IMG/VR virus record: IMGVR_UViG_646311923_000012
Direction: 5' to 3' (one strand)
DNA: 64,000 nt
DNA from: a virus
Taxonomy: Duplodnaviria; Heunggongvirae; Uroviricota; Caudoviricetes
Shown here: in pieces, positions 18,001 to 21,000 of the stretch
Layout: each line of letters begins with the position of its first letter
How positions within the stretch are numbered: the stretch's first letter is position 1
Made by a program: the position numbers

Positions 18001-21000
18001 CGATGATAGTTTGAGAAAAACAGAAACAACACTTTTGTGGCAAAGCATGGTGCCGGGTGCCTCCCGGTGAATTCAGTATCAGCACCTGAATCCGCGATTA
18101 TCCCATATACCTGGTTGCTGATCGCCCCTCCGCACAGGGGGATTCACCATGCAGAAGTGTTTTTAATAAACAGCAAACAAAAAAATCAAGCATTATGCAG
18201 GCTGTTTCTTTTTATCACCGGCCACAGCAATACCACAATGCCGCAGACCAGCACCCCATCCGCCAGCACCGACATGATTCTGCTGGTGAAATCCACCATC
18301 ACCACCAGAAACAGCAGGAGTGCAGCCACAGCCAGGCGCAGTTTTACCGTCACAGGTGATTCTCCAGACGAAGACCCAGAACACCGGCAATCTCTTCCAG
18401 CACCTTGCGCTCTTCCGGCTCAATTTCGCCGTCTGCCTCCGCAATGGCCACCGCCACATCCAGCACATCTTCCGCTTCACGCGTATCGTGTTTCACATCC
18501 TCAATCTCGCGTAACGCGGCACGACGACCAATTTTAAAATTGGTATCCAGCTGACCGATAATAGTTGCGCTAATCGCATTAATTTCCGAGGTAAACGCAG
18601 ACAACGCAGGCTGATTACGTAAGACCTGTTCGATCTTCGCTTTCTCGGATGCCTCGCATTCACCATCTGCATAGGCCACCAGGTATGCAGCGTTAATCAC
18701 CGCCTGTGCCAGATCGCGTTTCTCAAACTTTTTAATTTCCGCTGCCGCTCTGCGGGTTTTCTTTTTGAAGATTCCAAACATCGTGACGTTCCTTTGGGTG
18801 GGTGAGCCAACGCCCGGGAGCGATCTGCCCACAGAGAAAGTCACACTGACCACTCCGTAAGCTCACCCCCGAAAGGCTCTGTGGTTGATATGCGCCGGGC
18901 GTGGCGCAGATACAAAAAAGGCCCGCCGAAGCGAGCCTGGAAAATAAGTGTGGCGCGTTGTAGTGGAGTCGAACCACTGACCGATTGCTTAGAAGGCAAT
19001 TGCTCTGTCCGACTGAGCTAACAACGCATGATGCTGATAATGGACCGCCATCGGGGACTTGAACCCCGCGCAGCCAGCTTCGAAGGCTGGCGCTCTGTCC
19101 CGATGAGCTAATGGCGGTATGTGATATGGTGGCCCTTGCTGGATTTGAACCAGCGACCTGGCGATTATGAGTCGCTCGCTCTCACCACTGAGCTAAAGGG
19201 CCGAGCCAAAAAATAATAATCAGATGAAAATCAATAATCAAGCCCTTGCCTGGATACATATCTGTCTGGCGGGAAGCCATAATAGCGGTGAAATACAGAA
19301 ATAAAGTAGGACCTGCTTGAATAACCGCATTTTTCTGCTATAGCCTGTCCATATCCATGCCGGGAACATAACATATTTACAGCAACACGCATCCGCTCTT
19401 CCAGCAACAAGCGACTGAACATGCCCCCTTCATTTTTCAGTTTTGTCTTTAACAAACTCTCACTCATATGCAACTGTAGAGCAATCGCACCAAGCGTCCA
19501 GCTTGCTGATATATCTGTCTGAATTATCGCCCTGACTTTGGCACTTATGCTGGATAAACATCCACTTAAAAACAATGACATCCGTTCATCTGTTTCAAAC
19601 AGAGACAGGCAGGCCATCATAAGAAACATATCCGTGGCCTCTCCGGAAAATCCCTGGCTGGTAATTAAAGCCGCAGCCAACGCAGGATTGTTGGGTTCCA
19701 GCAACAGGTAAAGCGGAATGTCAGTCAGACGAGTCCTCGTCAGCTTATGCTGACTTTCCAGATATTGACTTACGACGGATTCGCTTATATCGACAATTTT
19801 AACTTTGCCATAATGCATAAGGAAAAGCTCCCTGATGCATTTGGTGGCCAGAACGACTGAGCCTGGCTTAAGTGACAACGTATCCTTTTCAAGAAAAATA
19901 TTAATTGGGGAGCAAACCATGATAACTGAACAGACAACAGCCATTATAATTTTACTTTCATTAGCAATTGGTTAGCTCAATTATAGCCCCAAAAGGTAAA
20001 TTATCATCAACACATAAGCAAAGGACTGACAGGTGTCGCCCCCCCACCAGCCGCCCATTCACCACAAATAAAAAGCCTTCAGGACTGAAGGCGTCTGTAA
20101 CAACCGCACTGATAGTCTGCCAGACCCGCCATAACAAGCTGGGTCAGTATTAACTGGCAGCGTTCGCGTGAAAGGTAAGTATTCTGCGCAACCTCCCCGA
20201 CTGTCGCCGGTTCGGTAACGCTTAATTCATTAAACACCACTCTGGCGGTTTCGGTCATATCCTGCTGTTTCAGCATGTCTTTTTCCCTTTTTCGGTTAAC
20301 GTGACACACCAATAACTCTTGTCGAAAAAGCCAGCAAGCTGAAAGAACGGTATTAATAACCACCAGCGAATTTATTGCGCTGCTGTATATTACGGACACA
20401 AAAAAACCACCTTCCGGTGGCTTCCTTGTGCGAAAAAACTTGCATTTCGCCTCGCGATACAGCTTTGCGAAGCTTACAGGAATTCAAGCTGTTTCTGCGT
20501 AAAAAAGCAAGCTTTTTTTATCGAAATGAATCGTGCATAGGTACATAAAGCATGTGTTCAGCCACGGCTAACCAACCTGCAATACGTTTCTCACATGTGC
20601 TGAAACACCATTCCGGGTGAGTACGATTTAAACATTCTGCCATTTTTCTCTTACTCATTCCCCGTCCTTCGTACCTTTGCCGGAGAATATTGATTAGCCC
20701 GGGATATTCCCCAAGCACCTCACTGATAACGCGATCAATAATCAACGCCTCTGTGTCTGTACAATGTGACAACCAGCTCTTCTGCTTCCCTCTGGTCATA
20801 TCCCGAAAAAATGCCTCAAGTTCCGGTTTTTCCAGCCCGGATTTCTTCATGCTGCGTAAAACCTCATTAACTGCTGTTTTCGTCAGCTTTTTCGAAACCA
20901 GTAACCGGTTAAACATATTTCCGGATTTACCCCCACCGATATACGACCACCGCCCCCACATCCGTAATTTCCCCTGGATCCAGACTGCTTCCAGCGTGTT

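Follow-up and report, generated by a model that had tools for sequence, protein, structure and literature searches.

The AraC-family gene in the late region of a prophage within the 64,000-nt stretch of viral DNA analysed here (the window) is, as judged by its near-identity to the characterised protein, an allele of psrB (prophage-encoded secretion regulator B), an already-known regulator. We consider it highly probable that this allele, which belongs to a lambdoid prophage in an EHEC-type E. coli other than O157, lies in a cassette of about 0.8 kb, is transcribed from its own promoter in the lysogen, and is additionally reached by Q-dependent read-through on prophage induction. A preliminary description had listed a Q-like gene, a tR'-like terminator, the AraC-family gene, three tRNAs, and lysis genes in this order. 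All of them were found on the minus strand, whereby a 65-aa ORF lies between the terminator and the AraC-family gene, and the tRNAs are followed by sialate-esterase and lysis genes. The features of the region are:

20518–21060, minus strand: Q-like late antiterminator gene of the DUF1133 family (Pfam and PHROG profile matches)
20431–20517, minus strand: intergenic stretch, where the late promoter pR' would be expected from lambdoid architecture
20400–20430, minus strand: tR'-like intrinsic terminator (15-bp hairpin plus T7 tract)
20079–20276, minus strand: predicted winged-helix ORF of 65 aa, backbone gene (phrog_331; "TrmB family" at NCBI; homologues and fold)
20070–20092, minus strand: intrinsic-terminator-like hairpin over the stop codon of the 65-aa ORF (7-bp stem plus TTTTTATTT)
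19212–20007, minus strand: psr-specific cassette, about 0.8 kb, 42% GC, in place of a methyltransferase gene (alignments)
19980–20007, minus strand: sigma-70-like psr promoter candidate, ATGATA-16-TATAAT (10 of 12 consensus matches)
19231–19944, minus strand: psrB allele, AraC/XylS-family regulator of 237 aa (identity to Sakai ECs_2191 and Pfam)
18951–19202, minus strand: tRNA cluster of the ileZ-argN-argO type (ARAGORN, Rfam, RefSeq)
19127–19202, minus strand: tRNA-Ile2 with CAT anticodon (ARAGORN; tRNA-Ile in RefSeq)
19041–19117, minus strand: tRNA-Arg (TCG) (ARAGORN)
18951–19027, minus strand: tRNA-Arg (TCT) (ARAGORN)
18914–18938, minus strand: intrinsic terminator 3' of the tRNAs (GC-rich 8-bp stem with T6 tract; −14.6 kcal/mol, z −3.5)
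18186–18853, minus strand: TerB/TciA-like and DUF3927/TciB-like genes, occupants of the stx slot (Pfam TerB, 59 bits)

The window protein shares 234 of 237 residues (99%) with ECs_2191 of E. coli O157:H7 Sakai (Sp11/OI-57; z2104 in EDL933) and 215 of 237 (91%) with ECs_1087 (psrA; z1789), and thus shows the near-identity to characterised PsrA/PsrB that defines a Psr protein. The substitutions relative to Sakai PsrB are A103V, H196Y, and I202V, two of which lie near the second helix-turn-helix. ECs_2191 and ECs_1087 differ from each other at 22 of 237 residues, which matches the published statement of "90% identity" between PsrA and PsrB. The C-terminal domain of about 100 aa with two helix-turn-helix motifs, by which AraC/XylS proteins are recognised, is present, with matches at residues 155–230 to Pfam HTH_AraC (50.3 bits against a cut-off of 26.6) and to HTH_18 (39.8 bits against one of 33.6). 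PHROG 1450 matches over the full length, and the nearest solved structure is the DNA-binding domain of GadX (3mkl, E 7e-19). Within the YdeO/GadX/AppY group, which likewise feeds into the gadE circuit, the closest curated models are YdeO (residues 1–229; equivalog NCBIfam NF007407, 108.5 bits against a cut-off of 348) and GadX (87 bits against 500). Since both scores are far under the cut-offs, the window protein is an orthologue of neither.

The equivalence of Sp11 and OI-57 follows from their common effector genes, as Sp11, the home of ECs_2191, carries nleG2-3, nleG6-2, and nleG5-2, and these three genes are also present in OI-57, the island encoding PsrB. The placement of psrA is less uniform. 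ECs_1087 is named psrA in PMC13502914 and the reviews put psrA in EDL933 OI-50 (PMC10877973; PMC8565820), whereas the second Sakai psr copy is located in Sp4; Sp6, which corresponds to OI-50 in its effector genes, was considered as its home and rejected, as it contains neither a psr gene nor the tRNAs. This naming mismatch does not affect the psrB assignment.

The Sp11 neighbourhood resembles that of the window, with DUF968, RusA, a DUF1133 Q-like gene, the 65-aa ORF, psr, and tRNAs, further with TerB, DUF3927, esterase, and lysis genes and a PerC/Pch regulator. The two differ in that argN is lost in Sp11 whereas all three tRNAs are kept in the window prophage, and in the O157 background of Sp11, whereas the 2.2-kb region with psr from the window matches O26, O103, and O45 strains at 100% identity. 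In Sp4, psrA has the corresponding position, flanked by the small ORF and ileZ, but the Q type is another one, a CAAX-protease gene lies upstream, and the small ORF is frameshifted. PatE (z0321, OI-8) is likewise a prophage-borne AraC-like activator of acid resistance. ECs_0287 of Sakai Sp1, which by its location is probably PatE, aligns with the window protein over the full length at only 37% identity and, unlike psr, lies outside a Q-tRNA late region, at one end of a degraded prophage. The comparison with known prophage AraC regulators that the preliminary description had proposed therefore places the window gene among them, as PsrB, and it could be annotated as psrB instead of "helix-turn-helix domain-containing protein". 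PsrA and PsrB have been known since 2011–2015 and are treated in recent reviews, so the discovery value is small.

In the reviews, PsrB is described as a protein that binds to the promoters of gadE and hdeA and increases acid resistance, and that lowers LEE type III secretion indirectly, via GadE and YhiF (PMC10877973; PMC8565820). The targets and phenotypes given here come from these two reviews and one 2026 paper (PMC13502914). From this literature on PsrB, the window allele is predicted to activate gadE, yhiF, and hdeA and hence to repress type III secretion; it would be a YdeO/GadX-like AraC/XylS activator that switches on the GAD acid-resistance regulon. The earlier guess of an EHEC-type AraC regulator of acid resistance or virulence is thus supported, because the gene is psrB, for which gadE/hdeA and LEE effects are reported.

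It might also be that the regulator acts chiefly for the phage, for instance on the neighbouring tRNAs, on late genes, or on the choice between lysis and lysogeny, and that overexpression gives rise to the host effects as a by-product. Such a role would fit the late-region position of psr, which does not vary among prophages of three or more Q types. It would also fit the presence of psr in S88, a strain described as causing neonatal meningitis (ExPEC) that is not known to carry the LEE. A further point in its favour is that, in the reviews' account, deletion of psrB alone in O157 has little effect on secretion (PMC10877973; PMC8565820). However, the reported direct binding to host promoters and the sheep-colonisation phenotype reported for psrA (PMC10877973; PMC8565820) argue against it, as do the closest relatives, YdeO and GadX, which are host acid-resistance regulators, and the methyltransferase-bearing phages, which do without psr in that slot. 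We regard a mainly phage-directed role as very improbable.

The gene had been described as AT-rich, which holds in direction but only mildly in extent, as psr has 44.0% GC compared to 52.6% for the window (10.6th percentile of 714-nt windows). This GC content below that of the surroundings would also suit a silent cargo, that is, a psr gene that is intact but xenogeneically silenced and without phenotype in the source strain. In PMC13502914, the psrA transcript is lower in an hnrS deletion and higher on HnrS pulse expression, a pattern shared with the prophage genes that the authors tie to Hha/H-NS silencing, and one review reports the in vivo effect of PsrB after induced expression (PMC10877973). 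We regard psr as probably subject to H-NS/Hha silencing. On the other hand, of 5426 complete E. coli genomes, 829 contain psr-like DNA and 792 of these reach a coverage of 80% or more, and the gene is intact and nearly invariant across hundreds of genomes and several serogroups, which argues for purifying selection. Moreover, psrA deletion alters secretion, whereby the passages concerned mention no prophage-inducing treatment (PMC10877973; PMC8565820). A psr gene that is entirely without effect in its source strain therefore appears unlikely.

The preliminary description had treated the AraC-family gene and the small ORF as a moron cluster of two genes. This applies to psr, but the small ORF belongs to the phage backbone, where it normally precedes a DNA methyltransferase gene. 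It shows 94–97% identity in five other prophages, and homologues of 63–65 aa that are 77–92% identical were found in Salmonella, Klebsiella, Citrobacter, and Buttiauxella; the usual next gene in E. coli, Salmonella, Klebsiella, and Citrobacter prophages is an N6_N4 DNA methyltransferase. The comparisons thus identify the ORF as conserved phage backbone and not as virulence cargo, and psr alone as the moron. The structure predicted with AF2 (pLDDT 89) consists of three helices and a beta hairpin, and Foldseek aligns this model with the winged-helix domains of MarR/OhrR, IclR, and CggR (TM 0.7–0.8), so that the predicted fold is a winged helix despite a TrmB score (Pfam PF01978) of 16.1 bits on the 106-aa form, under the gathering cut-off of 25.6. 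This longer form, starting with GTG and reaching to 20399, was rejected: its extension starts inside the T tract of the terminator, the N-terminal extension differs greatly between the window and Sp11 and contains a stop codon in Sp4, and the lengths of the homologues in other genera give it no support.

Between the 65-aa ORF and the tRNAs, the AT-richer cassette takes the place of the DNA methyltransferase gene. At its left junction, homology with methyltransferase-bearing phages stops at the −35 element of the promoter candidate, which thus begins exactly at the start of the psr-specific DNA, and the right junction was placed by alignment about 10 nt ahead of tRNA-Ile. We infer that a sigma-70-like promoter belongs to the cassette itself. 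The candidate is identical in Sp11 and Sp4, which is weakly informative because the entire cassette is conserved, and the three promoter-like sites found in the region compare with 3.1 expected by chance. The hairpin over the stop codon of the small ORF (−11 kcal/mol when folded with its flanks, z −2.2) is kept in psr-bearing and methyltransferase-bearing phages alike. The exact cassette limits and the module of winged-helix ORF and methyltransferase may aid the study of cargo swapping in lambdoid late regions.

Upstream of the small ORF, the Q-like gene matches Pfam DUF1133 with 367 bits (E 1e-110), Phage_antitermQ with 35.1 bits (cut-off 26), and PHROG 753, "anti-termination protein Q-like" (E 4e-74). 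Its product has 176 aa in the RefSeq version, and DUF968 and RusA genes precede it. The tR'-like terminator, with the core GCCACCGGAAGGTGGTTTTTTT at 20400–20421, folds with −21.9 kcal/mol (z −5.39), and none of 200 shuffled sequences was equally stable. The Q-like gene, the terminator, and the late genes on the same strand would fit a lambdoid Q-dependent late operon. Between the Q-like gene and tR', inspection yielded one weak pR' candidate (TTGCTT-17-TTGAAT, 20482–20510), which was not among the sites reported by the consensus scan, and neither pR' nor a Q-binding site could be identified from the sequence. An Rfam scan of 17800–21500 returned the tRNAs and STnc100 only, with no match within 19231–20420. 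The idea that a short pR'-tR' transcript represents the sRNA HnrS was dropped, as the Sakai prophages reported to encode HnrS are Sp9, Sp10, and Sp12, and neither Sp11 nor Sp4 is among them.

Since psr lies on the late strand, 3' of the Q-like gene and the strong tR'-like terminator, Q read-through into psr on induction is plausible. The same arrangement could mean that psr lacks a useful promoter and, like stx2, depends almost entirely on the Q-antiterminated late transcript after induction for its expression. This would agree with the statistically weak promoter prediction, with the absence of a terminator between psr and the tRNAs and late genes, and with Stx2 phages that carry psr in the same direction just 5' of the tRNAs and stx2. 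However, directly 5' of psr there is another terminator, as well as a site with 10 of 12 promoter consensus matches at the cassette boundary, and the psrA deletion phenotype as well as the response of its mRNA to the sRNA are described in passages that mention no inducing treatment (PMC10877973; PMC8565820; PMC13502914). In addition, the portal and protease-capsid genes of the psr-bearing prophage are split in the window, which makes selection on a purely lytic-phase function doubtful. Purely Q-dependent expression is therefore quite unlikely, and we favour expression in the lysogen, driven by a promoter of psr itself, as the likelier case. Of the earlier claim of Q-antiterminated expression, read-through on induction remains plausible, whereas exclusive dependence on Q is weakened by these findings. 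In the preferred explanation, psr would be made in the lysogen from its own promoter, shielded from upstream transcription by the two intrinsic terminators, and, upon induction, would also become part of the Q-antiterminated late transcript.

The preliminary description had further put the AraC-family gene at the position used by stx, and this does not hold. As in Stx-converting lambdoid phages, where stx lies in the late region on the same strand and 3' of Q and tR', psr is a late-region gene, but the stx slot lies between ileZ-argN-argO and the nanS-p esterase or lysis genes. In Sakai Sp5, Q is followed by ileZ/argN/argO, then by stx2AB and the esterase gene, and in the STEC409 prophage and phage phiSTEC1575-Stx2k the succession is small ORF, psr, three tRNAs, and stx2AB. 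Because psr is 5' and stx 3' of the tRNAs in Stx2 phages that have both, the two slots are distinct. The window genes in the stx slot belong to PHROG 632 and 1470, both of the category "moron".

The psr stop codon lies 28 nt ahead of the tRNA cluster, and a terminator scan of this gap found none. The psr coding sequence contains 11 ATA/AGA/AGG codons, which are read by these three tRNAs. From the open gap and these codons, one could speculate that psr is co-transcribed with the three rare-codon tRNAs as a single unit. A linked speculation is that the 65-aa ORF controls an exchangeable downstream cargo slot. We hold this combined reading as conceivable but doubtful. On this view, many lambdoid late regions of enterobacteria would have the 65-aa ORF as their conserved first gene 3' of tR', followed by a slot that usually contains an orphan N6/N4 DNA methyltransferase and here psr. 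If psr and the tRNAs do form such a unit, the 3' end of the psr mRNA would arise from tRNA processing, and its translation would be aided by the co-transcribed tRNAs.

The location of psr in the late region is confirmed, and the effector cargo of the psr-bearing prophage falls outside the window. A TccP2-like gene at 38526–39278 is part of the neighbouring prophage and not of the psr-bearing one, which carries a PerC gene at 12257–12571 (148.8 bits).

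The flagged stretch lies in a lambdoid prophage on the minus strand of the window, and all elements listed in the preliminary description (Q, tR'-like terminator, ORF, AraC-family gene, tRNAs and lysis genes) were found as described. The observation is real, while the finding on the AraC-family gene, here called psr, is already known. The only, mildly new points are the precise replacement of a methyltransferase gene by a psr cassette, a widespread winged-helix plus methyltransferase module, and a possible co-transcription of psr with rare-codon tRNAs. The features are as follows.

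21429-22475, minus strand, DUF968 gene
21057-21416, minus strand, RusA gene
20518-21060, minus strand, Q-like gene (Pfam DUF1133, 367 bits; Phage_antitermQ, 35.1 bits, cut-off 26)
20400-20430, minus strand, tR'-like hairpin followed by seven T, very stable (-21.9 kcal/mol, z -5.4)
20079-20276, minus strand, small ORF in its conserved 65-aa form, preceded by AAAGGGAAAAAGAC
20070-20092, minus strand, second terminator-like hairpin, overlapping the small ORF stop codon and directly upstream of the psr promoter-like site
19980-20007, minus strand, promoter-like site ATGATA-16-TATAAT (10 of 12 consensus matches)
19231-19944, minus strand, AraC-family gene psr (Pfam HTH_AraC and HTH_18, both above cut-offs)
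18951-19202, minus strand, three tRNAs 3' of psr: CAT (tRNA-Ile in RefSeq), Arg-TCG and Arg-TCT
18914-18938, minus strand, terminator after the tRNAs
18186-18853, minus strand, TerB/TciA-like and DUF3927/TciB-like genes, between the tRNAs and an esterase gene
18009-18181, minus strand, match to the sRNA family STnc100 (RF02076; Rfam 104.7 bits, gathering score 47)

The Q-like gene carries the PHROG label "anti-termination protein Q-like", and the small ORF is positioned between tR' and psr. For the TerB/TciA-like and DUF3927/TciB-like genes, the PHROG labels are tellurite resistance and "inhibition of cell division or resistance to colicin". The STnc100 match is placed between the DUF3927 gene and a SASA-type sialate esterase gene, which is followed by the lysis genes. 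The AraC gene had been called AT-rich, which holds only mildly, as its GC content is 44% compared to 52.6% for the window (10.6th percentile among same-size windows). A ParD/ParE-type toxin-antitoxin pair (22822-23447) was observed on the plus strand, opposite to these genes, in the nin-like region that precedes the DUF968 gene.

The 2.2 kb surrounding psr recur with 100% identity in numerous complete genomes of Shiga-toxin-producing strains (O26, O103, O45 and related ones); RefSeq names the product merely "helix-turn-helix domain-containing protein". O157:H7 genomes contain two copies of psr-related sequence, the better of which has 99.3% nucleotide identity, and in strain Sakai these are ECs_2191 (prophage Sp11) and ECs_1087 (Sp4). 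The proposed comparison with known prophage AraC regulators yielded 234 of 237 identical residues to the full-length ECs_2191 reading frame (PsrB) and 215 of 237 to ECs_1087 (PsrA), whereas PatE, a third EHEC prophage regulator of this type and probably ECs_0287 in Sp1, has only 37% identity. In Sp11 the order is antiterminator, 65-aa ORF, ECs_2191, ileZ/argO, TerB-like gene and, further on, pchB. Sp11 also harbors nleG5-2, nleG6-2 and nleG2-3, which an O-island review assigns as z2149-z2151 to OI-57 together with PsrB (z2104), and a 2026 paper names ecs1087 of Sp4 as psrA (PMC13502914). Moreover, ECs_2191 and ECs_1087 differ at 22 of 237 positions, in agreement with the published 90% identity of PsrB to PsrA. 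On these grounds, the window gene is assigned by its sequence as a psrB allele with the three substitutions A103V, H196Y and I202V. Reviews locate psrA (z1789) in EDL933 OI-50, whose Sakai counterpart by effector content (espX7, espN, espK) is Sp6; there, neither a psr gene nor the tRNAs were present. This mismatch with Sp4 reflects either a difference between the strains or an inconsistency of naming or assembly, and it has no effect on the psrB assignment.

According to two reviews (PMC10877973, PMC8565820), PsrA and PsrB are AraC/XylS regulators confined to prophages that induce GadE (YhiE) and YhiF, whereby LEE type III secretion is repressed. Deletion of psrA increases secretion and adds to persistence in sheep. 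For PsrB, binding to the hdeA and gadE promoters and a rise in acid resistance are described, and its induction improved survival in mice (PMC10877973, PMC8565820). The sequence fits the published PsrB role: among curated models, the psr protein is matched best by YdeO (full length; 108 bits, well short of the 348-bit cut-off) and GadX, and among solved structures the GadX DNA-binding domain comes first. The guess of an EHEC-type regulator of host virulence or acid resistance was right, psr being a member of that known family. A PerC-family (Pch-type) regulator gene (12257-12571, minus strand, 148.8 bits) lies downstream of the lysis genes, so that a Pch of the activator type and a Psr of the repressor type for type III secretion share one prophage.

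Two structural statements have to be corrected, namely that psr occupies the position used by stx and that it forms a two-gene moron cluster with the small ORF. Sp5, the Stx2 phage of Sakai, has the gene order Q, ileZ-argN-argO, stx2A, stx2B, esterase and lysis genes. Two Stx2 phages also carry psr, the STEC409 prophage and the deposited phage phiSTEC1575-Stx2k, and both have the order small ORF, psr, three tRNAs, stx2AB. Thus, psr and stx have separate slots, psr upstream and stx2 downstream of the tRNAs; the TerB/TciA-like and DUF3927/TciB-like genes take up the stx slot of the window. In strain 2014C-4135, a remoter homologue of psr (59% protein identity) follows the tRNAs, an arrangement unlike that of the window.

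The small ORF, for its part, is phage backbone and not cargo. Five other prophages encode its protein with 94-97% identity (the Sp4 copy has a frameshift after residue 49). In prophages of E. coli, Salmonella, Klebsiella and Citrobacter, the ORF is located after Q and before the lysis genes, and these Q genes come from three different families. Among the compared loci (L006, L010, L015-L022), the 63-65-aa ORF is followed by a gene for a 350-360-aa N6_N4 DNA methyltransferase wherever the contig is long enough, in most cases at a distance of about 150 nt; an additional 110-aa ORF separates the two in Citrobacter. The small ORF belongs to phrog_331, a group of unknown function. Its AlphaFold2 model (pLDDT 89) has three helices and a beta hairpin, and among solved structures it most closely resembles the winged-helix domains of MarR/OhrR, IclR and CggR proteins and of O-methyltransferase N-termini; a Pfam TrmB match stayed below threshold. 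A 106-aa form starting at GTG was rejected: its start falls within the T tract of the terminator, the extension is strongly divergent between the window and Sp11 and contains a stop codon in Sp4, and homologues from other genera have 63-65 aa.

The cassette limits were obtained by aligning psr-bearing with methyltransferase-bearing phages. Homology starts just past tR', runs through the small ORF and its terminator, ends at about 20004-20007 and restarts about 10 nt before tRNA-Ile. By this alignment, the psr-specific DNA is delimited to a cassette of only about 0.8 kb (about 19212-20007, 42% GC) in place of the methyltransferase gene. Sp5 retains a remnant of the methyltransferase gene 3' end just before ileZ (L005:4690-4765, upstream of ileZ2), which suggests that the module was ancestral there as well.

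The architecture had been taken to imply Q-antiterminated expression on induction. Read-through by Q-modified polymerase is established lambdoid biology, and after induction it could plausibly extend into psr. However, the better-supported reading is that psr is probably expressed in the lysogen from its own candidate promoter. The -35 of ATGATA-16-TATAAT coincides with the left end of the cassette, and Sp11 and Sp4 have the site in identical form. Since a consensus scan found promoter-like matches in the region to be no more numerous than in shuffled sequence, the match alone is weak evidence. Own-promoter expression is nevertheless favored by the position of the site at the cassette boundary, by the two terminators that separate the presumptive late promoter pR' from psr, and by the altered secretion after psrA deletion and the response of psrA mRNA to the sRNA HnrS, for which the accessible text of the reports mentions no prophage-inducing treatment. 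In the HnrS paper, psrA mRNA is decreased in an hnrS deletion mutant and increased on HnrS pulse expression, and HnrS represses hha (PMC13502914). Together with the lower GC content, these mRNA changes suggest silencing of psr by H-NS/Hha. A promoter scan and inspection of the sequence did not map pR'. The psr gene contains 11 rare codons (5 ATA, 1 AGA, 5 AGG; 4.6 per 100). Of the six other genes counted, five lie at 0.7-2.5 per 100, and the sixth, the small ORF, likewise reaches 4.6 (3 of 65 codons). The tRNAs reading these codons begin 28 nt past the psr stop codon, and the gap contains no terminator. A promoter-like TTGATT-17-TATTAT (19213-19241) reaches into the psr 3' end. It might be possible that psr is co-transcribed with these tRNAs.

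The integrase of the prophage is intact. The portal gene is split (4236-5459 and 5456-6820, minus strand); a split portal gene, marked as frameshifted, also occurs in O26 strain 11368. The gene for the prohead protease-capsid protein likewise comes in two pieces (7938-8969 and 7032-7826, minus strand), although it is one gene in 11368. The prophage is probably defective in particle formation. At the end of the neighboring prophage, a 250-aa protein with proline-rich tandem repeats is encoded (38526-39278, plus strand), annotated in O26 11368 as "EspF repeat-containing protein" (TccP2/EspFu-like effector), and a very AT-rich stretch (36% GC, about 37850-38100) adjoins its gene.
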